A DNA stretch of 63,961 bases, counting the filler, from an uncultured bacterium (GTDB lineage Bacteria > CAYJOG01), in assembly GCA_964371695.1 (NCBI GenBank). It is 4 parts of 4 records of this genome, joined end to end, with 100 filler letters (N's around TTAATTAATTAA, not from the genome) between each part and the next. Parts side by side here need not be neighbours in the genome. Positions count along the whole stretch, not along the records: positions 32,476 to 48,343 come from CAYJOG010000015.1; 3 more parts are not named here. One strand, written 5' to 3'. Positions 38,188-50,613 of the stretch are shown one piece after another; the first letter of the stretch is position 1; each line of letters opens with the position of its first letter. The notes below the pieces were generated by a model. The model was not told the origin of the DNA, searched no databases, and saw only the letters and a program-made list of their open reading frames with translations. Position numbers and translations under genes: made by a program.

Positions 38188-38868
38188 CTACGCCCCAAAT
38201 GGTTTTTTCGGTATGGGCAAAGGGGGTTGGGACTTGATGAACAGGTGGGGGCACACTGCGCCGCAGGTTTTGGCGTGTTTGCATCCGCTGCAGATGCGCT
38301 GGCGCAAAACAAAGGCCGCCACCACCGCCACCGCCGAAACCAGGATCATGTAAAAACCCGGCCCGGGCATGCCCAGCGTGCGGAAGTTGCCAATCGCCCC
38401 CATGCCCAGCAGGGTGGGGGTAAAGGGCGCCACGTTCACCGGGGCCTTGGGGTTCAACTGGTGGCCAAACTGGTACATCCAGAAATACATGGACCCCAGA
38501 AAAACAGACGGAAACAGGAGGGCGGGCAAAGAAAACATCTTGGCGTAGCGTTTGCCCGGCAAAAACACCCCCACCATGGTGACAAGGCCAATGCCCGACA
38601 CGCCGTAAACCGCCATGGCCCTTTCCAGCTTGGCGGCTTCATCCAGCCGGGCCATGCCGATGTAGTGGTTCAGGATGTTGATTTCGGTGATGTCTCCGGT
38701 GACCTTGTTCAGGTAAACGGCCATCACCAGACCGTTGGGATATTGGGGGGCCTGCAGATACCAGCCCCAAATCGGAAAGAAATAAGCCGCAGCGTAAAGA
38801 AGGCACGCGAGCAGGGCCAGAAAAACCACTGTCCACCGCAGGAACCGGTCTTGAGAAGAGATGTGCAT
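38188..38868 (-). CDS. nosB: Clade II nos cluster membrane protein NosB-like
   Basis: APQYPNGL and INILNHYIGM motifs, four TM segments, AAAGGAGA RBS, last gene of the nos cluster. Confidence 0.8.
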   Translation of the reverse strand: MHISSQDRFLRWTVVFLALLACLLYAAAYFFPIWGWYLQAPQYPNGLVMAVYLNKVTGDITEINILNHYIGMARLDEAAKLERAMAVYGVSGIGLVTMVGVFLPGKRYAKMFSLPALLFPSVFLGSMYFWMYQFGHQLNPKAPVNVAPFTPTLLGMGAIGNFRTLGMPGPGFYMILVSAVAVVAAFVLRQRICSGCKHAKTCGAVCPHLFIKSQPPLPIPKKPFGA

Positions 38869-38890
38869 TGTTTCTCCTTTGAATGAATGC

Positions 38891-39829
38891 TCAAACAACA
38901 TTGGACCGCCTGAAAACCAGGAAACCCGTGGCGGCGCAAACCAGACCCAGCAACAGGGGCCAGACAATGGCCCAGGCCAGCACGCCGCCCCGGCCCAGGA
39001 CATCGGTCAGGGCGTAGGAAAGAGGCCCCAGGATGGAAAGCTCCGGGTCGAACACCGCAATCGCCGCCGTGCGGAAAGCCTGCACCGGATTGAGCAGCGC
39101 CAGGGTCATCACCATTTCAGCCTGCACCATCTGGCGGATCATCACCCCCAGCAAGAGGCCATCCACCAGCGCCTCCAGCGACAGCCACACCCCAAAGGCC
39201 ATGCCCAGGGCGGATTCCTGTGTGGCGCTGAGTATGGAAATCAGCATGGCCATGCCCAGAAAACAGACCACCATGGACGCCGTGAGGCCGGAGTAATACA
39301 CCACCATGGACCACGGCACCCCCCCGCCCCGCAACTGCTCATAAAGCGCCCCGGCCCAAAGCGCCATCACCAGGGGGGTGGCCATGGCGACAAGCCCACC
39401 CCCAAACCGGCCCCAGTAATAACCCGACAGCGAAACCGGCAGCGACAGCATGTACTCCCACACGCCCGATTCCCGGTCTCCCACCAGGGTTCTGGCGGTG
39501 GTGATGAGGATGAAAATGGGCAGGATGACCATGCTGGCCTGAATGAAGGTGAGCAGAAGCCGACCCAGGCCATGAAACCCCAGCACCTGGGATTCCGCCA
39601 AGCCAAACATGAAAAACAGACCCATCAAAAGGGCGAAGCCCAGGCAATAAAGAAGAAACCAGCGCGCCAGCAGGGTCTCTCTCAGTTCCAGGCTGAAAAA
39701 CTCCCGCAGCGTGGAGCGGCGGGGGCGGGGAGCGATGGGGGCAGGAATGTTAATTGTCCCCTCCGGCTTCTGTGCCACCCTCAACCGGATAGAGGTGGTC
39801 GTGGCGTTGCGCGCCTTTGGAACCCACAC
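38891..39829 (-). CDS. nosY: ABC permease NosY
   Basis: DRESGVWEYMLSLP and LNPVQAFR motifs, six TM segments, nos context; start codon uncertain. Confidence 0.85.
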   Translation of the reverse strand: MWVPKARNATTTSIRLRVAQKPEGTINIPAPIAPRPRRSTLREFFSLELRETLLARWFLLYCLGFALLMGLFFMFGLAESQVLGFHGLGRLLLTFIQASMVILPIFILITTARTLVGDRESGVWEYMLSLPVSLSGYYWGRFGGGLVAMATPLVMALWAGALYEQLRGGGVPWSMVVYYSGLTASMVVCFLGMAMLISILSATQESALGMAFGVWLSLEALVDGLLLGVMIRQMVQAEMVMTLALLNPVQAFRTAAIAVFDPELSILGPLSYALTDVLGRGGVLAWAIVWPLLLGLVCAATGFLVFRRSNVV

Positions 39830-40238
39830 GTTTCAAGAGGATTTTTTGCGCCTGAGCGAAGGTGAGTTTTCCGTTTCTGTCGGGACCGATGCCGTAATCC
39901 ATGGGGGTTTTCAGGCCGTCTGTATACCGGGCCTGTTCTGCCTTGAGCCACGTTTTCCCGTCCTGCGGACTCAGCACATAAAGCACCGCGTTTTTAAGGG
40001 CGGGCGCGGCCTGCTTTTTGGCCAGGGCGCAGCCCAGGTCATCAAAAAAATGAATCTGCGCGCCCGGCCCCACCCACTGGGCGGCAAAACGGCGCTCGGT
40101 GATGGCCATGCGGCAATGTTCGCAGGTGTCCCTGCCCCAGTGGGGCGGCCCCACGCGCATCTCCCCCACAGAACACCCCTGCAAAAAAATCGCGGCAAGC
40201 GTCGCGACAAAAAGAGCAGGCCAGATTTTCCGGTTCAT
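39750..40238 (-). CDS. nosL: Copper chaperone lipoprotein NosL
   Basis: LQGC lipobox, CEHCRMAI, FDDLGC and TPMDYG motifs. Confidence 0.9.
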   Translation of the reverse strand: MNRKIWPALFVATLAAIFLQGCSVGEMRVGPPHWGRDTCEHCRMAITERRFAAQWVGPGAQIHFFDDLGCALAKKQAAPALKNAVLYVLSPQDGKTWLKAEQARYTDGLKTPMDYGIGPDRNGKLTFAQAQKILLKRVGSKGAQRHDHLYPVEGGTEAGGDN

Positions 40239-41119
40239 GCCTGTGGCCGCCCTTCCGCGCCCGGCGCGGGAGAAATTTTCACATCCCGGAGCAGTCCGCC
40301 ATAGCGGGTGAGCAACGCAAAAAAACGGTAGCGGTCGGCTGCGGGAATCTGGCCGGTCCAGTGGAGGGGTTCCTTTTCTTCAAGCCCCCACTCGTGAAAC
40401 GCTTTTTTCATGGTGTCCACGCCCGGCGTCACCCTCAACGACACGGCCATGGGGCTGACGGCGCCCGTCAGGCCGCCATCCACCGCCACGATGTCGTCCA
40501 TCACCAGTGTTCCCTGGTCCAGTTCCACCACCCGGTTGACCAGACCGGCGATTTCGTCCACCCGGTGCGAGGCCAGCAGCATGGTGGTGTGTCGGGGGGT
40601 CTCGCTGAGCTGGCGAAAAAACACCGCCCGCGATTTGGGGTCCAGGTTGGCCCCCGGTTCGTCCATGATCAGAATGGGCGGCTGCCGGGCAATGGCGGCG
40701 GCGATGAGCAGTTTTTGCTTCATGCCCCCCGAAAGCGCGCTGAAACGCCGTTGTTGCAGGCTTTGCAGGTCCAGACCAAGAGGCCCGGCAACGGCTTCGA
40801 TTTGTTGACGTGAGACCTGGCACACGCGCTCCATGGTGCGCAGATAATCCGCCACCCGCACCCGCAGGCCCGGCGGCAACTGGGGGACAAACCCGATTTG
40901 CCCAAGCACCTGGGGGCGGTGCCCGCGCGTGTTGAGGCCATTGACCGTGATGTCGCCGGTGAACTGGTACAACCCCAGCAGGCAGCGGATGAGCGTGGTT
41001 TTGCCAGAGCCGTTTTGCCCCACCAGGGCAATGCGATCGCCCGGGCGAATCGTCAGGTCCAGGCCCTTGAGGATTTCGTCTTTGCCAAAAAACTTTCTCA
41101 GCCCACGTACTTCAATCAT
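40235..41119 (-). CDS. nosF: ABC ATPase NosF
   Basis: GQNGSGKT, LSGGMKQK and MDEP motifs; ATGA-coupled to nosD and nosL. Confidence 0.9.
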   Translation of the reverse strand: MIEVRGLRKFFGKDEILKGLDLTIRPGDRIALVGQNGSGKTTLIRCLLGLYQFTGDITVNGLNTRGHRPQVLGQIGFVPQLPPGLRVRVADYLRTMERVCQVSRQQIEAVAGPLGLDLQSLQQRRFSALSGGMKQKLLIAAAIARQPPILIMDEPGANLDPKSRAVFFRQLSETPRHTTMLLASHRVDEIAGLVNRVVELDQGTLVMDDIVAVDGGLTGAVSPMAVSLRVTPGVDTMKKAFHEWGLEEKEPLHWTGQIPAADRYRFFALLTRYGGLLRDVKISPAPGAEGRPQA

Positions 41120-42435
41120 GCGCCGCGAGTCCTTTGCAGAGGCCGGGGAAGGGTGGGGGTGTCCAGCCGGGGGCTGGCGTCCTCCAGCAGCAGAAGCGGC
41201 TCGGTGATTGGCACAAGACGTTCTATCAGATTAATGAGCAACAACACCGGCGACCCCCTGAAAAACATCGCCGAAGGATGCACCCCAGTCAATAAATCTC
41301 CATATTTCCTGGGTGCGTGAGGGGTGTCGCCAAACTTGTCGTGGTTGCGGTCAAACCCTTCGTAACTGTCCCAGTAATTGCCATTCCACACGCCGGGCGA
41401 GGTGTGTCTGCTTTCGGTGTCCACGTCGGCAGTGTTGGATTTCAGCACGTTCTGCTCAAAAAAATTGCCCGGCCTGTCGTTGGCCAGCAAAATTCCGGTG
41501 GCGTTGAAAGCCACCGTGTTTTGTCTGATGCGGTTCACCGCCCCCGTGTGCCAGGGCGAGTTGTCCACCAGAATGCCCGTGTTGGAATCCAGAATGGTGT
41601 TGTGCCGCACAAAAACGCCAGAGGTTTCCTTCAGACCCAGGCCAATGCCAGAGGCCCCGGTGGACTGCCGAATGTCATTGTCCACCACCCGGATGTTCTG
41701 GCCGTACATGAGGAATATCCCCACCTGATTGTTCCTGAAAAAGTTGCGGCGCAGGGTGACGTTTTCGGAATACATGGAATGAACGCTGTAGCGGGAGCCT
41801 TGGCCGTGATTGTCTTCCAGCAGCACGTTGCGGGAATACCAAACCACGGCGTCTCTGGAACGCCGCCAGTGGTTGCCCCGCAGGGTCACGCCGTTGCTGG
41901 ACCACACCCGGATGGCGTCTCCGCGCAGGGTGATGTCCCGGAACATGCTCTGAACGGTGCAGTTTTTCACCAAAACGTTCTGGCTGTCGCCGATGTCAAT
42001 GCCAAACAGGGTGTTGTGTATGCGCAGGCCCTGCAGGACGACATCCCGCTGGCTTTGCACCGAGACACCGGCGTCCACGTCGGGATTGGACTGGCCCGAT
42101 CTGCGCACGGTCAGGTTGCGCAGCGTGACGCCGGGGGCCTTCACCCAAATCACGGTGCCCTTTCCGTTGCCTTCAATCACGACACCCTTTTCTCCCTGTA
42201 TGACCACCTGGGGCGCGAGGATTTCAATAGGCCCGTGATAAACCCCGGCCTTCAGCCGCAGGGTTTCTCCGGGCATCAGACGGGAAATCCGTTTCTGGAA
42301 AGGTCCGGTCTGAATGCGTACGCCCCAGCCGCCCGCCATGCCGCCGTCAGCCGCCAGAAGAGGGCACCTGCCCGCTAAAAGCAGGCAGGTGTAAATACCC
42401 GTCAATAAAGATTTATTCAGTCTTTTTTTCGCCAT
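41116..42435 (-). CDS. nosD: Nitrous oxide reductase maturation protein NosD
   Basis: Beta-helix repeats, RGDAIRVW, RYSVHSMYS, GNYWD.Y.GFD...D.FGD. Confidence 0.93.
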   Translation of the reverse strand: MAKKRLNKSLLTGIYTCLLLAGRCPLLAADGGMAGGWGVRIQTGPFQKRISRLMPGETLRLKAGVYHGPIEILAPQVVIQGEKGVVIEGNGKGTVIWVKAPGVTLRNLTVRRSGQSNPDVDAGVSVQSQRDVVLQGLRIHNTLFGIDIGDSQNVLVKNCTVQSMFRDITLRGDAIRVWSSNGVTLRGNHWRRSRDAVVWYSRNVLLEDNHGQGSRYSVHSMYSENVTLRRNFFRNNQVGIFLMYGQNIRVVDNDIRQSTGASGIGLGLKETSGVFVRHNTILDSNTGILVDNSPWHTGAVNRIRQNTVAFNATGILLANDRPGNFFEQNVLKSNTADVDTESRHTSPGVWNGNYWDSYEGFDRNHDKFGDTPHAPRKYGDLLTGVHPSAMFFRGSPVLLLINLIERLVPITEPLLLLEDASPRLDTPTLPRPLQRTRGA

Positions 42436-42492: not shown

Positions 42493-44874
42493 CTACCAGG
42501 TCGCCAAGTAATCCACGATTTTCTCCGCTTCGGCCTTGGTCACGCCCTGCTTGGGCATCTTGATGCCGAACTTTTTGATCAGCGGGGTGATATAGGGGTC
42601 CTCGTAATATTTTTCCGGATCCATGATCCATTGGACCAGCCAGGCTTTTTCGCGCCGGGTGGTGAGGCCGACCAGGTTGGGGCCGCCGGCTTCCTTGCCT
42701 TTCTGGTGGCAGGCCATGCAGCCATATTTGTTGAACTCGGCCTCGCCGGGGGCTTTGGGGGCTTCCTCTTCGGCAAACTCCCACGCAGCCAGCCGGGCGG
42801 TGGCAGCCTGGGCTGCGGCGTGGTTCCTCAGGCGGCTTGTTTCAGCCAGACTGTCTGGCCGCACCGACAACAAACCAAGGCCCTTTGTGGCGAAGGGGCT
42901 GTCTGCCGGGCGGGTTTTGAGGGGAAACAGGCCAGACTGGCTGGCGGTGACCTTCACCGTGGCGGTTTCGCCCGGTGAAAACACATTCATGCCGTTTAAC
43001 CCGGAGACAAAAAAGGAAATGGCAGCGTTGGGGTCAGTCTCGGTGTTGGTCAGGTGAAACACCACTGTCTGGCCCTGCTTGGCGTTGACGCGCCTGGGGT
43101 TGATGCCCTGGCGGCTGAGGGTGCCAAACACCTCCACCGAAGAACCAGACTGCACCACGCGCTCCTTGCCCGCCTCGGTGGCGCTGGCCGACCGCGCCAT
43201 GGTGTAGGGGTCCGTTCCCGGTTCGTAGGTGTCTTGGGGTTTCAGGGTATTTACGTCAATGCACTGGGTGTAGTGAGGCTCGCCCATGGGCAGGGGCATG
43301 TCATAAAGCAACCGCATTTTTTCGCCCGAAACGGAAATGAGCTGATGGTTCTGGGGGTGCAGCGGCCCCACGTGCGAGAAACGGTCAATGGCCAGTTTGT
43401 TGAGCGCGATCACATAACGGCCTCGTGGGTCCGTGGAGTCGCCCTGCATGGAGACCAGATGGCCGATGTTGTAATGGACCGATTGTTTGCCGAGTATCTT
43501 GAGGGTTTCATAGTTCCATTGCACCACCATGGAATCAATGTAGACAGAGGTGTAGGCGATACCTTTTTTGGCGTCAAACTGAGTGTGCAGCGGCCCCAGA
43601 CCAAGCTGCACCTGACCGTGCAGGGCTTTTTTGTAATCCAGGATGGGCAGGCCGTAGGGGTCTGTTCCGGCAAAGTCCCTGGCTTTGATGAGGGCCTTGA
43701 TTTTGCGGATGTCGAAAATGCTGGCGTGGGTGTCCAGCTTGCCCGCCACCACGATGAACCGTCCGTCGGGGCTGACATCAGAGCCATGGGGTGACTTCGG
43801 CTCTGGCACCAGGAACATCAAACCCTCCTGAATCGCCACTTCCATGGGAATCACGTTGTGGCCGCGCACCTTGATGGCCTTGCCTTCGGCCACCACTTTT
43901 TCGGCCTTTTTCCAGTCGATGATGTGCATGTAGTCCATGTCGCGGGTGGAGCAGCCCGCCTCATAGGGGGGGCGTCCCTGTTTGCTGCCGCCCACGTAAC
44001 GCTCGGCGCAAAAGGAATTGGTGAACGAAAATCCGTAGCTCTCTTTTTTGCCCGCATCGCTGAGATCCTGCACATAGGGCGGCGCGATGAGGGTGAAGGA
44101 TGCCTCCCGATCAATGCGTCCCTTCTGACGGTCAAATTTGTGGTAGGTGATGCCGCCTCGGTAGTACTTGTTGAAATACCCCTGTTCCAAGGGTTTGTAG
44201 GAGTGATCCACCGTGGTGGGATATTGCGAGCCTTCAATGACATATTCGGTGTTGGGCGTGACAAACGCACCGCCGTGGTCGCTGCGGAAAATGGGGTTGT
44301 TCACGATTTGTTTGGTTTCCAGATCCCGCAGGTCCACCACAAAAATGCGGGGGTTGGCTTTGTCGTTGATGAAGGCGAACTGGCCGTCATATTTGCCGTC
44401 CGTCTCTGAAAACGCTGGATGGTGCGTGTCGCCCCAGTTTGTCTTGACGCCGTCAATGTCTCCCTCACGGGCAAGCTGGCGCGATTCTTCAGTGAAATGA
44501 AACCCTGCTGATGAATCCGGCGCAGAGGTGGGAATGTATTTGACAATGCGCATGGAGGGAACGAGATAGGCGATGAGGGATGCTGCCTGACCGCCCGAAT
44601 TGAGGCAGAGAAATTCTTCCTTGTCATTTTTGGGATAGGTGGAAAAAGCGGCAACCATGTCGTCGGTGGCAAGGTTGCGGGCTTTGGCCACGCTCAGGAG
44701 GTCTCCCTTGTGGCCGGTGGCTTCGAGGCCACCCTGGCCGCCTTTTTGGCAGCCGGAGCCAAAGGCGAGCAGCGCCGTGGCGCTCAGCAATAGTCCTATT
44801 TTCAGGCGGGTTTTGGCCGGGCGGCTTGGCCCCTGGCCAGACCGGTGAAACAAAAAACGGTTTGAGAGAATCAT
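42493..44874 (-). CDS. nosZ: NosZ paralogue B: intact CuZ propeller, CuA-less cupredoxin domain, C-terminal cytochrome c
   Basis: Lipobox FGSGC; DTHH, SDHGG, KSPHG, GPLH, NIGH and EPH (seven His); CuA motif absent; CMACH heme motif at 42706-42720; ATG 44874 overlaps the upstream TGA. Confidence 0.92.
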   Translation of the reverse strand: MILSNRFLFHRSGQGPSRPAKTRLKIGLLLSATALLAFGSGCQKGGQGGLEATGHKGDLLSVAKARNLATDDMVAAFSTYPKNDKEEFLCLNSGGQAASLIAYLVPSMRIVKYIPTSAPDSSAGFHFTEESRQLAREGDIDGVKTNWGDTHHPAFSETDGKYDGQFAFINDKANPRIFVVDLRDLETKQIVNNPIFRSDHGGAFVTPNTEYVIEGSQYPTTVDHSYKPLEQGYFNKYYRGGITYHKFDRQKGRIDREASFTLIAPPYVQDLSDAGKKESYGFSFTNSFCAERYVGGSKQGRPPYEAGCSTRDMDYMHIIDWKKAEKVVAEGKAIKVRGHNVIPMEVAIQEGLMFLVPEPKSPHGSDVSPDGRFIVVAGKLDTHASIFDIRKIKALIKARDFAGTDPYGLPILDYKKALHGQVQLGLGPLHTQFDAKKGIAYTSVYIDSMVVQWNYETLKILGKQSVHYNIGHLVSMQGDSTDPRGRYVIALNKLAIDRFSHVGPLHPQNHQLISVSGEKMRLLYDMPLPMGEPHYTQCIDVNTLKPQDTYEPGTDPYTMARSASATEAGKERVVQSGSSVEVFGTLSRQGINPRRVNAKQGQTVVFHLTNTETDPNAAISFFVSGLNGMNVFSPGETATVKVTASQSGLFPLKTRPADSPFATKGLGLLSVRPDSLAETSRLRNHAAAQAATARLAAWEFAEEEAPKAPGEAEFNKYGCMACHQKGKEAGGPNLVGLTTRREKAWLVQWIMDPEKYYEDPYITPLIKKFGIKMPKQGVTKAEAEKIVDYLATW

Positions 44875-47201
44875 TTGGAGGCTCCTTTTTCGCTCAGAAC
44901 CTTCTTGGCGCGAAGGCCGGCGTCTGCGGCTTTCACCTGATACTGGAACATCTGCTCGGCCCAAAGCTTGGCTTCAGACCATTTTTTGTCACGCACGGCG
45001 GCGTCCAGTTTGGGCCTCAGTTTTTCTATTTCCTCAAGTTGCTGCACCGCGTCGTTCACGAAATTGGCCGCACGGGGGTCGGACTGGTAATTGTTTTTCT
45101 TCAGCCACGCCACCACGGAATCGATCACCGCCTGGGTGTCTTTGATGACCTTCATTTTTTCATCAAAAATCTTTTTGGCTTCTTCAGGCGCCATCTCTTC
45201 GGTTTCAAATTTTTCCGCAGTCGCTTTCCAGTTTTTGGGTTTCACCAGCAGATAACCCATCATCTCAAGGTGCAGGGCCGAGCAAAACTCGGTGCAGTAA
45301 TAAGGGAACACGCCTTCGCGGCCTGCCTTGAAGGTGACCGAGGCCACCTTGCCCGGTTCCCAACTGCTATGCACGTTGTAGGCGCTCACCGTAAAGCCGT
45401 GGGTCTGGTCTTTGGCCTGCTCCAGGTTGGTCAGGTGAAAAGTCACCGTGTCGCCCACTTCCACCTCCACGATGTCCGGCACAATGTGGCTGCGGATCAC
45501 CGTGCCGAAGACATGCACCCGGTTGCCTTTTCTCTCCACCCGCTCGTTGCCCGGCATGGTGCGGTAAGGCGCGGTTTTTCCGATGCGGGGGTTGGTGCCG
45601 ATGGGGTAACTGTCCACCCCCTTGATCAGTTTCACGCTGAGTCCCACTCCGTTCAGGTTCGTGGCCTGGGGAACAGCGCCTTCATAAAGCCGCACCAGCT
45701 TGTCTTTCTGAATTTCAAACAGCAGCGGGTTCATGGGTTTTTGGGGCCCCACATTGGGCAGGTGCCCCGCGGGGCGGGTGTTCAGGACAATCAGATAACT
45801 GCTTTGCGCAGTGGCGGTTTCTTCCTGCGGAATCACCAGCCTGCCGCCGGGTTCCTCCAGGGTCACGGCTTCGGCCACTTGCCCGCTCTTCAGGTCCAGC
45901 CGCACCACCTTGCCGGGGTCACGCACCGAAACAAACGCCTGACCGTCGCCGGTGAAGGCGGTGTCCACCGTCGCGCCGCCCACTTTTACCTGCCGCAGCA
46001 CCTTTGCCCCTGCGGGTGCGGTGGGCACGCCGAAATCATCCTTTTCCGTGGCCAGTGCAGCGGCGAGTTTTTCCAGGTCCACCAGTGTCACCCTGTCGCC
46101 TGTTTCGTGGGTGATGACAGCCTGCTTGCCATCGGGCGACACCCGGATGCCAGAGGGGAGGGGAAGCGTCTCCAACTGAAAAAGCCCCCCTGCGGCCACC
46201 AACCCGGGCAGGTCTGCAAACGGGTGACCTTTAAACCGCTGGGTGGTTTTGGCCACAGCCGACTGAGCTTTGGCGAGGTCCACCACGTGCAGCACGCCGG
46301 GGGCGTCCGCCGGACAGTCTTCCAGTCCGGGATAGGCTCCCTTTTTCACGCGGCAGGCCGACACCGTGAGCACCAGATTTTTGGAGTTTTCCCTGCCGGT
46401 GGCGGTCTGGATTTGCAGATAGGGCGGCAATGCGGCGGTGAAGGAATTCTTTTTGTCAAATCGCCCGGCGTGGCCCTCTTCGGCGGCGTATTTCCAGAAG
46501 GTCAGGCCGCCCCTTAAACCGGCCGCCCCGCCCTGTTCCGGGTCGGCCCATTTAAGCCCCGGTATCTGGGGAATGTGCGTGGTCTGCACCACATAACGGG
46601 TGTCGGCGTCCACCGCCACGTCGTTGCCGGAGTTGGAAAAAACGGGGTTGGAGAGGATTTCCTTCACCTCGAAATCATCCAGGTGCATCACGGCAATCCT
46701 GCCGTTGGCCCCGTCGGCCACAAACAGGGCCTTGCCGTCATAACGGCCTGCGGTCTCTGACATCGCGGGCAGGCCGCTGTCGCCAAAGTCATAGGAAATC
46801 TCGTCTCTCGCGCTGGCCGCCAGCACAACCTTGCTCTCGTCGTCAAAGCCGAAGCCCTGCCACGGTTCGGGTGTGAAAAGACCCGAATATTTCAGAATGC
46901 GCATGGAGGGCAGCCCCACCATGGCCAGGCGGCCTGAACTGCCCGTGGTGAGCATCACCATGTGGGTGTCCAGCCCGCCGCTGGGCACAAAGGTTTTCAG
47001 GGCCGCCAGTTGTTCCTGCTCGTCCAGCCCCCTTTGCTCGGCGATTTCGAACAGTTCACCAGACAGGCCCATGGACCTTTCTTCCTTCTTCTTCAAGTCC
47101 CTTTTTTTGTCTGCCCTGAAGCATCCCGCGCCAAAAGCCAGCACCACAAGCAAGGTGGTGGCCAGGAGCGGGGTGCGAATGACTGGAAGTTTTGAATTCA
47201 T
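44871..47201 (-). CDS. nosZ: NosZ paralogue A: CuZ-less propeller, intact CuA domain, helical C-terminal extension
   Basis: Lipobox GAGC; NosZ-type PSMRILKY, PEPWQGFG and SET.G.YDG segments; THGF (His at 45399-45401) and CTEFCSALHLEM (45261-45296); no CuZ histidines. Confidence 0.9.
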   Translation of the reverse strand: MNSKLPVIRTPLLATTLLVVLAFGAGCFRADKKRDLKKKEERSMGLSGELFEIAEQRGLDEQEQLAALKTFVPSGGLDTHMVMLTTGSSGRLAMVGLPSMRILKYSGLFTPEPWQGFGFDDESKVVLAASARDEISYDFGDSGLPAMSETAGRYDGKALFVADGANGRIAVMHLDDFEVKEILSNPVFSNSGNDVAVDADTRYVVQTTHIPQIPGLKWADPEQGGAAGLRGGLTFWKYAAEEGHAGRFDKKNSFTAALPPYLQIQTATGRENSKNLVLTVSACRVKKGAYPGLEDCPADAPGVLHVVDLAKAQSAVAKTTQRFKGHPFADLPGLVAAGGLFQLETLPLPSGIRVSPDGKQAVITHETGDRVTLVDLEKLAAALATEKDDFGVPTAPAGAKVLRQVKVGGATVDTAFTGDGQAFVSVRDPGKVVRLDLKSGQVAEAVTLEEPGGRLVIPQEETATAQSSYLIVLNTRPAGHLPNVGPQKPMNPLLFEIQKDKLVRLYEGAVPQATNLNGVGLSVKLIKGVDSYPIGTNPRIGKTAPYRTMPGNERVERKGNRVHVFGTVIRSHIVPDIVEVEVGDTVTFHLTNLEQAKDQTHGFTVSAYNVHSSWEPGKVASVTFKAGREGVFPYYCTEFCSALHLEMMGYLLVKPKNWKATAEKFETEEMAPEEAKKIFDEKMKVIKDTQAVIDSVVAWLKKNNYQSDPRAANFVNDAVQQLEEIEKLRPKLDAAVRDKKWSEAKLWAEQMFQYQVKAADAGLRAKKVLSEKGASK

Positions 47202-47729
47202 GTCTCACGCCTCCTGAAGTGGAGCAGGTTTTCGCGAAGATGGACTCCTTCGACTGTCACCCCTCAGGACACATGCTATGACATGAACCACTGTTTTTAA
47301 TTTCAGAAGGATATTTTTAATCGTTTTTTTTCTCCAAAGGCTGACACCAGTCATAAATAAACCATGGGCAGTGAAAAACATTCTGCTTTTTGGGGCGGAT
47401 GCCGGGCTTTGCCCCCGGTGAGGGGCTTCATAAACCCCGTCAGGGCCGGGCTTTGTCTGGCTGTTGATGTTCACAAAGGTATTGGGCTGCATTCTGCCCA
47501 CCATGGTGCCGTTGACCTGTTAATCAGGATTGTTCATGCTCAGACAGGGCAAAGCGGGCTGCAAGAGACGCCACCGCCTCTTTTCGCGTATGGGGTTTTC
47601 CATCCGCCGCAAAACGCAACAGGGGCGACATCAGACTCTGAAAATCAGGAATGGCCATTGGAAGGGTGGGGGTGGAGCGATGGTAACCCGTTTCGAACCG
47701 GGTCTGAGGCCGAACGCTTCAAGAAAGGG

Positions 47730-48341: not shown

Positions 48342-48443
48342 ACNNNNNNNNNNNNNNNNNNNNNNNNNNNNNNNNNNNNNNNNNNNNTTAATTAATTAAN
48401 NNNNNNNNNNNNNNNNNNNNNNNNNNNNNNNNNNNNNNNNNNN

Positions 48444-48792
48444 CGTTGATGGTGTTCACGTTGGGCATGGCCACATAACCCTGCTCGTTGGCGTCGGGGT
48501 GGCTGGGGTCATGCACCAGCCGGGGGGGGCTGGGGTCTTTCTCGATTTTGATCACCTTCACGCCTTCGCCCACGCCACGGGGCTGGGCCCCCGGTTCCAG
48601 CGGCAAAAACGGAAAACGCCGCTCGGTGTCGAGGCTGTGGGTGCTGAACACCGCCAGCAGGCGCTTGAAGGGGCCGCCCTCTGGCGTGCGGGTGGTGTTG
48701 ACGTTGGCGATGTTGGCCGCGATCAGGTCCATGTGCAGGCGCTGGGCGCTGAGGCCACTGCCCGCGATGTCCATGGCTGAAAAAATGCTCAC
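48444..48792 (-). CDS. flgC: Flagellar basal-body rod protein FlgC (truncated by linker)
   Basis: SGLSAQR..MD.IAANIAN.NTTR and DPSHPDA...GYV.MPNV motifs. Confidence 0.95.
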
Positions 48793-49301: not shown

Positions 49302-49703
49302 TCAGTACCTTCTGTCATGCAGACGCGGCATGGCGGGGCCTTTGGCCCCATAGGTTTTGTGTATCTTCTTGAGGCGGGAGAGAATTTCAAGCTTTTTGGT
49401 GGCGCCCTGTCGCCCGGTGTTAAGCAGAACTTGAACTTCTGACCAGTTCTGCTGTATCGCCAACGCGCGTTTGCTCATGGTGGGGGTGACACCCTGGGGG
49501 CCGGGCATGAGTCTAGGGTCGCCGCCCCCGGCTTTCAACAGTTTTTCCTGCCTTTGTATGAGTGTGTTCACCAATCCCCACTGGGCAGAACGGGCGGCTT
49601 CCAGCAGTTCGGTGCTCAGCGTATACAACTCCTCCAGTTCGTCTTCTCCCAGCACCACCGGACTGGCTGGGGGCTGCGGCGCGGATGGGGAGTGTTCAGC
49701 CAT
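49302..49703 (-). CDS. Small helical protein, possibly FliT-like
   Basis: LLEAARSAQW..V..LI..Q..LL pattern; upstream of flgB; start set at ATG 49703. Confidence 0.5.
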   Translation of the reverse strand: MAEHSPSAPQPPASPVVLGEDELEELYTLSTELLEAARSAQWGLVNTLIQRQEKLLKAGGGDPRLMPGPQGVTPTMSKRALAIQQNWSEVQVLLNTGRQGATKKLEILSRLKKIHKTYGAKGPAMPRLHDRRY

Positions 49704-50613
49704 TGTTTGCTCGTTGTTCTGAAGATTCGTAGCCCACCTCGGCTTCGGCGCCCAAAAGAGCCGCCTCAAAGGCCAGAATGGACTCATCGGCCCCCTCTGG
49801 CGCGGCTTGCTGTTCCGGCGGTGAAGGCGCGGCGGGCGCGGGAGATTCACCGGCCCCCTGGGCCTGGGGAGCGGCGGGTTCGGTGGCGACCCCGGCGGCT
49901 TCCCTGGCCTCGCGGGCGGCGGCCAGGGCGTCGCGCACGTCTTCCATCCGGCGGCGGGCCATGCGTTTGCGCCAGTCGTCCTGATCAATTTCGGGGTAGC
50001 TGAACAACACCAGGGCCAGCCACTTGCGGGCCTCCTCGGCCATCCCCAGGCGCAGCGACAACTCCGCCACCAGATAGGCGGTGCCGATTTCCTCAAGCCG
50101 TTTTGGGAAATCATGGCTGTTCTCGAACACCTCGCGGTATCGGGCCACCGCCAGACGCAGAAACTCCCGCTCGCCGGTTTTGTCCTGCGCATAACGATAA
50201 AGCCAGGCTGTCTTGAGGAAATGCGACGCCTGACGCGCCACCTTGCCGGGCCGCAGGCGATAACAGTGGCTGGCCAGGTGCAGATTCAGAATGGCGTCTT
50301 CCAGACTGCGCACCCGCTGGCGCGCCTCCATGCCCTGCAACATTTCCAGGCTCAGGCGGGCGATGGCTTCCTTCTCGGCCTGGGTGAGGTCAAAAAAGTC
50401 GTCGGGCGCGCTGGCGTAGTGGCACTGGGGACACACCCACACGCTTTCCAGCAGCGGATTGCTGCCCTGGTAATAGGGGCAGAAATCGGTGTCTTCCTGC
50501 ACCTTGCGGAACAGATAGTGGCGCATCACCCGCGCCGCAAACGTGTGGGCGCACACCGGGCAGGCGACGGTTTTTTCGTAAACCCGAAGCGGTTTTTTGT
50601 TTTTGCCAGACAT
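49696..50613 (-). CDS. DUF2225-like protein (Zn-finger + TPR-like)
   Basis: CPVC...DTDFCPYY...NP...VWVCPQC.Y, AWLYR and YLVAEL..RLG motifs. Confidence 0.8.
   Translation of the reverse strand: MSGKNKKPLRVYEKTVACPVCAHTFAARVMRHYLFRKVQEDTDFCPYYQGSNPLLESVWVCPQCHYASAPDDFFDLTQAEKEAIARLSLEMLQGMEARQRVRSLEDAILNLHLASHCYRLRPGKVARQASHFLKTAWLYRYAQDKTGEREFLRLAVARYREVFENSHDFPKRLEEIGTAYLVAELSLRLGMAEEARKWLALVLFSYPEIDQDDWRKRMARRRMEDVRDALAAAREAREAAGVATEPAAPQAQGAGESPAPAAPSPPEQQAAPEGADESILAFEAALLGAEAEVGYESSEQRANNG

Follow-up and report, generated by a model that had tools for sequence, protein, structure and literature searches.

Two adjacent NosZ paralogues with reciprocally lost copper sites: a candidate heteromeric nitrous oxide reductase of the clade II type

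We know of no biological sink for nitrous oxide (N2O) other than N2O reductase, NosZ. A stretch of 63,961 nucleotides from the assembly of an uncultured bacterium (GCA_964371695.1), referred to here as the window, contains two adjacent nosZ-like genes, each of which has lost the ligands of one of the two copper sites, and raises the question of whether their products together make up one enzyme. The genes are nosZ-A (44871..47201; 776 amino acids; P0001) and nosZ-B (42493..44874; 793 amino acids from its ATG; P0002), both on the minus strand like all features of the nos cluster described below, and their products, called A and B, are 28-29% identical. From comparison of sequences and structure modelling we consider it likely that A and B together form a heteromeric N2O reductase of the clade II type, as its two subunits, and that this enzyme would hold a single CuA-CuZ pair. 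As given in the preliminary description of this DNA, both open reading frames (ORFs) are full length and uninterrupted, and they are joined by an ATGA (44871..44874) in which the stop of nosZ-A overlaps the start of nosZ-B. The sequence AAGGAG sits 8 nt 5' of the nosZ-B ATG, upstream of which the frame stays open to a TTG at 44964, and nosZ-A, which follows about 330 nt of intergenic DNA, has a Shine-Dalgarno sequence (AGGAGG) of its own. No third NosZ was found in a tblastn search of the window.

When A and B were aligned with canonical NosZ, the seven CuZ columns were histidine throughout in B (H151, H152, H200, H363, H430, H472 and H534) and read GLGSDRL in A, with histidine at 0 of 7. The CuA columns were occupied by H601, C636, E638, C640, H644 and M647 in A, and by ITPDAG, with no ligand, in B. 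The register was confirmed by a HMMER alignment of A to the solved enzyme 1qni, in which GDSGLP of A stands under GDCHHP, LPSG under NPHG, and THGF...CTEFCSALHLEM under THGF...CNWFCHALHMEM. Titles of PDB entries name the Pseudomonas stutzeri mutants H129A, H130A, H178A, H326A, H382A, H433A and H494A together with variants of H583; we take these seven histidines to be the CuZ ligands of that enzyme and H583 to be one of its CuA ligands. The preliminary description had reported A as devoid of every CuZ histidine with an intact CuA site, and B as having all seven histidines without CuA ligands. Both statements hold against canonical NosZ, the former also against 1qni, and the six motif substitutions quoted for A are all present in the translations.

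The loss extends beyond the ligands themselves. In a comparison of 48 A-type, 48 B-type and 35 canonical sequences, we found 65 conserved columns at which B agrees with canonical NosZ and A differs, all of them (65/65) in the propeller; ligand neighbours, for example the Glu of GEPH, are among them. The reverse, agreement with canonical NosZ in A but not in B, was seen at 39 columns, 26 in the cupredoxin domain and 13 N-terminal, the latter including a PEPWQ motif. The loss in A thus covers the entire catalytic pocket, and that in B the entire CuA pocket. The CuA ligands have a frequency of 1.0 in the 48 A-type sequences, suggesting that the copper site of A is in use. Residues conserved specifically in A are Q206, D413, R434, A513 and F71; a new metal site in the A propeller was considered and rejected, as no conserved His/Cys/Met cluster was present there. 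The segment of the VFTPEPWQG type (residues 96-115 of A, 46857-46916; residues 104-123 of B) is kept in A and canonical NosZ and degenerate in all B-type proteins, indicating that it tracks the CuA site in the same chain. The stretch next to it is partly of low confidence in the monomer model of A.

The preliminary description had proposed a search for adjacent pairs with the same reciprocal pattern in other genomes. We searched GTDB species genomes with an A profile and JGI metagenome contigs with a B profile, each scan returning 80 loci. An A-type gene was present in 15 of the GTDB loci, and a B-type gene lay directly next to it in all 13 with readable downstream DNA, the other two ending at a contig edge. 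Among the JGI loci, 29 had a B-type gene, directly preceded by an A-type gene in 27 of the 27 with readable upstream DNA, the other two starting at a contig edge. The pattern is therefore not due to chance, as it recurs in 40 other loci (13 from GTDB and 27 from JGI, pooled without de-duplication between the collections). The two genes strictly co-occur; a lone A-like or B-like gene was not seen where the flank was readable, so that frequent loss of one partner, which the same description had named as an observation that would speak against its proposal, did not appear. In 39 of the 40 loci the B frame opens at most 50 nt from the A stop. The pair-bearing metagenome-assembled genomes (MAGs) are labelled Bacteroidota, Ignavibacteriota/Chlorobiota and Bdellovibrionota, the record titles in the GTDB scan being those of Melioribacteraceae, Bacteroidales, Flavobacteriia, Lutibacter, Lentimicrobiaceae, Chlorobiota and Bacteriovoracaceae MAGs.

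The remaining loci (65 from GTDB and 51 from JGI) encode canonical NosZ with both sites, except for the second gene of one locus (L154:5896-13842). In that locus the first frame (974 aa) encodes a NosZ in which both copper sites are present along with two CxxCH motifs. The NosZ-like frame behind it exceeds 1475 aa and is cut off by the end of the locus; seven CuZ histidines and at least seven CxxCH motifs are present in it, and the CuA columns are gaps. It represents a further kind of multiheme NosZ without CuA, beside a complete NosZ. The 21 closest relatives of A that were examined (a family of about 710-820 aa, 41-83% identity) all keep CuA and have 0-1 histidine at the CuZ columns. Among the 120 matches listed for B, CuA ligands are absent and one or two CxxCH motifs present in all 120, and 119 have all seven CuZ histidines, the remaining one being truncated at its N-terminus. 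The nearest named homologues of the window proteins are proteins from Myxococcota and 'Deltaproteobacteria' MAGs, at 52-53% identity. A further NosZ match was absent from four of five pair-bearing genomes, and the fifth had an extra 667-aa frame.

The A/B form looks uncommon. A search of 1.84 billion cluster representatives with an A-propeller profile gave 832 NosZ-like matches at E <=0.001; the best 150 of these included 18 full-length proteins, 6 of them of the A type. Of 401 evenly sampled Bacteroidota genomes, 135 gave a NosZ match, but an A-type gene was present in the seed genome only. One NosZ-like cluster representative (P0254, 753 aa) is without both ligand sets, reading RGDRNFG at the CuZ columns and MAGADL at the CuA columns.

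A maximum likelihood tree (78 rows, quick search, LG+G4) placed the A-type sequences in one clade and the B-type sequences in another, each with a support of 100 in the Shimodaira-Hasegawa-like approximate likelihood ratio test (SH-aLRT). Both clades split alike, into a Bacteroidota/Ignavibacteriota/Chlorobiota branch and a branch formed by the Bdellovibrionota locus and the group of the window, the closest named relatives of the window proteins bearing the label Myxococcota. A and B co-diverge: their pairwise distances correlate with r = 0.965 over 48 pairs, a value to which shared ancestry contributes. Mean pairwise identity was highest in the metal-bearing domains (0.84 in the A cupredoxin domain and 0.68 in the B propeller) and lower in the metal-free ones (0.49 in both the A propeller and the B cupredoxin domain). 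We estimated the ratio of nonsynonymous to synonymous substitution (dN/dS) by the method of Nei and Gojobori (NG86) from 10 independent pairs of the Bacteroidota-type branch, and obtained rough values of 0.04-0.12 for the A propeller, 0.01-0.05 for the A cupredoxin domain, 0.03-0.07 for the B propeller, 0.035-0.14 for the B cupredoxin domain and 0.02-0.10 for the B cytochrome c domain. The metal-free domains (0.035-0.14) are under purifying selection and are clearly not drifting, and relaxed selection was not seen among these pairs.

These results bear on the explanation that the two genes are a decaying tandem duplicate, that is, two pseudo-enzymes, or the product of a chimeric assembly. Such an explanation would account for two proteins that each lack an essential site when taken alone, and it is compatible with a related locus (L082, 1972-3927; one of the 27 from JGI) in which the A-type gene is frameshifted in the cupredoxin domain after 'AEQGD'. 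The cluster representative P0246 has the same LVHEDRL pattern as that gene and an aberrant C-terminus; the cause is a sequencing error or else a genuinely broken copy. However, both frames in the window are intact, the arrangement recurs in the 40 loci from independent assemblies, and purifying selection acts on all domains. The recurrence and the selection together favour subfunctionalisation over decay, as had been suggested at the outset.

As for the assembly, four DNA runs from one sediment-metagenome study, which may be the source of the window, contain the stretch. Contigs from three of these runs bridge the A/B junction without differences (44679-44948, 44159-45416 and 44562-44974), which, with the synteny elsewhere, argues against a chimera. 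One contig each in two runs (X2 and X3) leaves the window at 44744, 127 nt inside the 5' end of the B gene; this departure would fit a chimera, and the divergent contigs may come from a related strain. The 30-base continuation past 44744 was not found elsewhere in the window. The recurrence in 40 loci is a stronger argument against a chimera than these contigs, and we regard decay or misassembly as an extremely improbable explanation of the pair.

What, then, do the two chains look like? In A, a beta-propeller without the CuZ site (residues 66-545, 45567..47006) was modelled by AlphaFold2 with a predicted local distance difference test value (pLDDT) above 90 across most of residues 140-460. 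It is followed by the cupredoxin domain with the CuA ligands (residues 548-660, 45222..45560; from the alignment and Pfam) and by a C-terminal extension of three long predicted helices (residues 672-774, 44880..45188). The best Foldseek match of A was the N2O reductase structure 1fwx (E 1.8e-36, 612 columns, TM-score 0.64 by target length). Pfam assigned no family convincingly to the extension. Its conservation extends to canonical clade II NosZ proteins about 760 aa long (of the Rhodocyclaceae type and others), but two short A-type genes lack it: L044 (Bacteriovoracaceae; 685 aa) and L083 (a 645-aa frame on a metagenome contig that groups with L044). B consists of a beta-propeller with the seven CuZ histidines (residues 85-556, 43207..44622), a cupredoxin-like domain without copper ligands (residues 572-672, 42859..43161), whose fold is confidently predicted (pLDDT about 81-94 per 10-residue block), a predicted linker helix (residues 675-697) and a C-terminal cytochrome c domain (residues 705-793, 42496..42762; Pfam Cytochrom_C, E 2.4e-5) with CMACH at residues 719-723. 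The preliminary description of B as a propeller with a dead cupredoxin domain is therefore right as far as it goes, and overlooked the cytochrome c domain. A has the CuA site and no heme motif.

The profile of clade II NosZ, TIGR04246 (cut-off 625 bits), scored 671.8 bits in B, above the cut-off (profile 7-557), and 392.6 bits in A, below it, with the profile covered from 1 to 578 of its 578 positions. The two-domain fold of propeller and cupredoxin is thus present over the full length of both proteins. Both are below the cut-offs of TIGR04244, the clade I profile dependent on twin-arginine translocation (625 bits; A 182.1, B 265.3), and far below that of the clade III profile NF052460 (700 bits; A 74.9, B 109.3). 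A putative signal peptide of A (47121..47201) contains a lipobox-like LAFGAGC and is without a twin arginine; FG[AS]GC motifs of this kind are at both N-termini and an RR motif is at neither, so A would be exported as a lipoprotein, and B would probably be exported as well.

To obtain a picture of a possible contact, a complex was modelled from fragments (residues 60-655 of B and 548-660 of A). It scored 0.86, the best of three controls being 0.01; the score mark is reached by 58 of 80 solved complexes and by 2 of 110 mismatched pairs. The model runs share at least 80% of their contacts, with a partner pLDDT of at least 84. On the B side the modelled interface takes in H200 and H534 as well as residues beside the other ligands, and on the A side residues 600, 602, 635, 637-639 and 642-650, which flank H601, C636, C640, H644 and M647. 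The model shows that the CuA loops of A are compatible with the CuZ face of B, not that they bind it. The columns of that face are more conserved than the rest of the B propeller (0.84 vs 0.66, p = 5.5e-6). Of the head-to-tail A/B dimer proposed in the preliminary description, the contact between CuA of A and the CuZ face of B agrees with the model and the conserved face. Its other, metal-free contact is not specially conserved: the top-face columns of A gave 0.43 vs 0.49 for the rest of the domain, and the cupredoxin surface of B 0.41 vs 0.52 for the rest, suggesting that this half of a symmetrical dimer may be loose or different.

The same CuA-CuZ contact would also be expected if A were a dedicated CuA electron shuttle that docks transiently on the CuZ face of B without forming a stable heterodimer, and the weakly conserved second contact fits such a looser association. 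Yet A keeps a full-size, confidently folding propeller with a dN/dS of 0.04-0.12, which would be costly for a mere shuttle, and the tight translational coupling of the two genes suggests equal amounts of the proteins, as for subunits. We consider a shuttle of this kind improbable.

The cytochrome c domain of B raises a further alternative, namely that B is self-sufficient as a homodimer or a monomer, its heme c replacing CuA, and that A is an accessory protein such as a maturation scaffold or a redox carrier. The domain occurs in every B-type protein examined, B alone passes the NCBIfam cut-off for NosZ, and the weak conservation of the metal-free contact surfaces would be understandable. Against this, A precedes B in 27 of 27 readable loci, and the invariance of the CuA ligands extends to their neighbours in the 48 A-type sequences. 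The only known role of CuA in the NosZ family is to feed CuZ in trans; a B homodimer would cover the CuZ face with a cupredoxin domain that has no redox centre, and the model places the CuA loops of A there instead. A self-sufficient B thus seems to us about as improbable as the shuttle.

For the heteromeric enzyme that we prefer, the following working order can be proposed. B would carry the catalytic CuZ cluster, and A the only CuA site for the entry of electrons. The cupredoxin domain of A would sit on the propeller of B, with CuA of A feeding CuZ of B as in the head-to-tail homodimer, giving one active CuA-CuZ pair per AB unit. The cytochrome c domain of B probably takes electrons from the respiratory chain and probably passes them to CuA of A, NosDFY would load the copper, probably with a NosL-like lipoprotein, and the metal-free propeller of A and the metal-free cupredoxin domain of B would be retained as a scaffold. 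The physical association, its stoichiometry, the step from heme to CuA and the reduction of N2O by the pair are what we infer from the observations above.

Several points weigh against this proposal. Since the heme belongs to the chain without CuA, the proposal has to assume that it reaches far enough to serve CuA of A. The complex was modelled as fragments, with no comparison of full-length AB, AA and BB, and since the modelled geometry is that of the known homodimer, its passing score may reflect likeness to the solved clade I homodimers. The lack of extra conservation at the second contact and the frameshifted A-type gene of L082 also count here, as does the pooling of the two collections. 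In the distance correlation, 13 of the 48 A-B pairs were partnered only by the equal size of their source contigs. The dN/dS values are rough because dS was saturated (about 1-2.5 or more, with some values undefined), and they come from the Bacteroidota-type branch rather than from that of the window.

How does the pair compare with known systems? According to the available text of an October 2026 review (PMC13685413), N2O reductase falls into three clades and is a functional homodimer, as shown by the structure from P. stutzeri (clade I); the same text makes no mention of a heteromeric enzyme. No description of a heteromeric or CuA-less NosZ was found in the available full-text literature, supplementary sequence lists aside, and in the accessible parts of that literature the wording 'NosZ heterodimer' occurred only in a figure legend that mislabels the P. 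stutzeri homodimer (bioRxiv 10.1101/2025.06.28.662143). PDB matches at E <1e-10 were sequences of clade I homodimers only, and the predicted contact of the A cupredoxin domain with the B propeller mirrors the CuA-CuZ contact between their subunits. With clade II NosZ (TIGR04246) the pair shares the seven-bladed propeller and cupredoxin domain, the CuZ and CuA motifs, the nosDFY neighbourhood and the Sec-type leader, but here the sites are split over two paralogous chains. Neither chain has both of the ligand sets that define clade II NosZ, and A and B together do. An AB unit would hold one active pair and six Cu, in contrast to two pairs and twelve Cu in the homodimer.

The domain order of B (propeller, cupredoxin fold, cytochrome c) is that of cNosZ, a clade II NosZ with a C-terminal monoheme cytochrome c from Wolinella and other Campylobacterota, as cited in the available text of a preprint (Simon et al. 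2004, via bioRxiv 10.1101/2025.06.28.662143). However, the Campylobacterota proteins compared (P0032 and P0039), which have this domain order, keep CuA (HCECHM), unlike B; the heme of cNosZ can serve the CuA of its own chain, whereas that of B would have to serve the partner's. CuA-only relatives of NosZ resembling A in this respect are described in the available text of PMC10936187, namely DPANN archaeal 'nosZ-like' proteins with CuA and without CuZ, two MAGs having a protein with five conserved histidines directly upstream. As described there, these proteins differ from A in being shorter and branching between Cox2 and clade II NosZ; that text reports for them no full-length propeller and no seven-histidine cytochrome c NosZ partner, and proposes no heterodimer. 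The lactonase-type NosZ of clade III (NF052460) has distant sequence similarity to A and B, but its clusters are without nosDFYL according to the available text of the review (PMC13685413), whereas the A/B cluster has nosDFY. The replacement of homomers by paralogous heteromers after duplication is a general concept in the available texts of PMC11066126, PMC10888846 and PMC12867745. The pair would share with it an inherited homodimer interface followed by complementary loss in two paralogues; it differs in that two different metal cofactor sites are hit by the loss, and these have to come together between the subunits.

If the proposal is true, the conserved gene pair would encode the first N2O reductase known to be heteromeric, would directly demonstrate that only the cross-subunit route from CuA to CuZ matters, and would offer a clean natural case of two paralogues that each retain one cofactor site. 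It also concerns surveys of nosZ. B passes the NCBI NosZ model, and MAG records carry it as 'Sec-dependent nitrous-oxide reductase'; A, under the cut-off, is entered as 'cytochrome C', 'cupredoxin domain-containing protein' or 'hypothetical'. Filters that require all ligands drop both genes, and a filter of this kind is given in the methods text available for bioRxiv 10.1101/2025.06.28.662143.

As to the origin of the two chains, the CuA domain and the helical tail of A resemble the canonical subgroup of about 760 aa, and a tree of the cupredoxin domain alone (110 columns) placed the CuA domain of A among these NosZ with weak support; B grouped with other subgroups, without strong support. One may speculate that the asymmetry is adaptive and not the outcome of a neutral ratchet: the metal-free halves would form a platform that fixes the heme of B at CuA of A, and the AB unit would be a self-contained wire from heme c through CuA to CuZ that needs half as much copper per particle. 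Such a form would be at an advantage in anoxic sediments poor in copper, and its two chains would have been drawn from two different clade II subgroups, not from a local tandem duplication. We regard this extension as rather doubtful, if less so than the shuttle.

Genes for copper maturation lie next to the pair, the order on the minus strand being nosZ-A, nosZ-B, nosD, nosF, a 162-aa ORF, nosY and a 271-aa ORF. The genes nosD (41116..42435; Pfam NosD, E 3.6e-31), nosF for the ABC ATPase (40235..41119; ABC_tran, E 2.1e-26) and nosY for the ABC-2 permease (38891..39829; ABC2_membrane_2, E 9.2e-15) were identified by Pfam; nosD lies downstream of the B gene in nine other A/B loci, and the synteny of nosF extends to seven loci. 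The 162-aa lipoprotein-like ORF (39750..40238) gave no family match of its own in Pfam and NCBIfam. Its homologues occupy the same position in five loci, and four of the six aligned counterparts from other A/B loci matched Pfam NosL weakly (best E 1.6e-4, below the cut-off); RDxCxxCxM and TPM motifs are conserved in the group. We tentatively call it NosL-like. Of the intact nosDFLY set stated in the preliminary description, nosD, nosF and nosY are thus secure and nosL is tentative. The 271-aa ORF (38188..39003) had no family match in Pfam and NCBIfam, and has relatives of 22-40% identity inside the nos clusters of three other A/B loci (L005, L044 and L046); a NosB-like role for it would be a guess. 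In the Melioribacteraceae locus the pair lies within a full cluster of the clade II type, with genes for a cytochrome c, a membrane protein, nosD, NapG-like and NapH-like proteins, nosF, a NosL-like protein and nosY.

On the upstream side of the nos cluster, an intergenic sequence at 47465-47480, TTTGTGAACATCAACA, loosely resembles, by eye, an FNR/CRP-type palindrome. Farther in the same direction are a flagellar rod gene (48388-48792; Flg_bb_rod, E 1e-8) and a DUF2225 gene (49696-50613). Flagellar genes would seem unusual for a relative of Myxococcota. Other arrangements of nosZ were also seen in the scans. In one locus (L062:7604-15652) the frame after a canonical NosZ is 1910 aa long, and in it a complete NosZ is fused to ten CxxCH motifs. 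Several Rhodocyclaceae-type loci (L029, L032, L043, L106 and L125) have two complete canonical nosZ frames less than about 10 kb apart.

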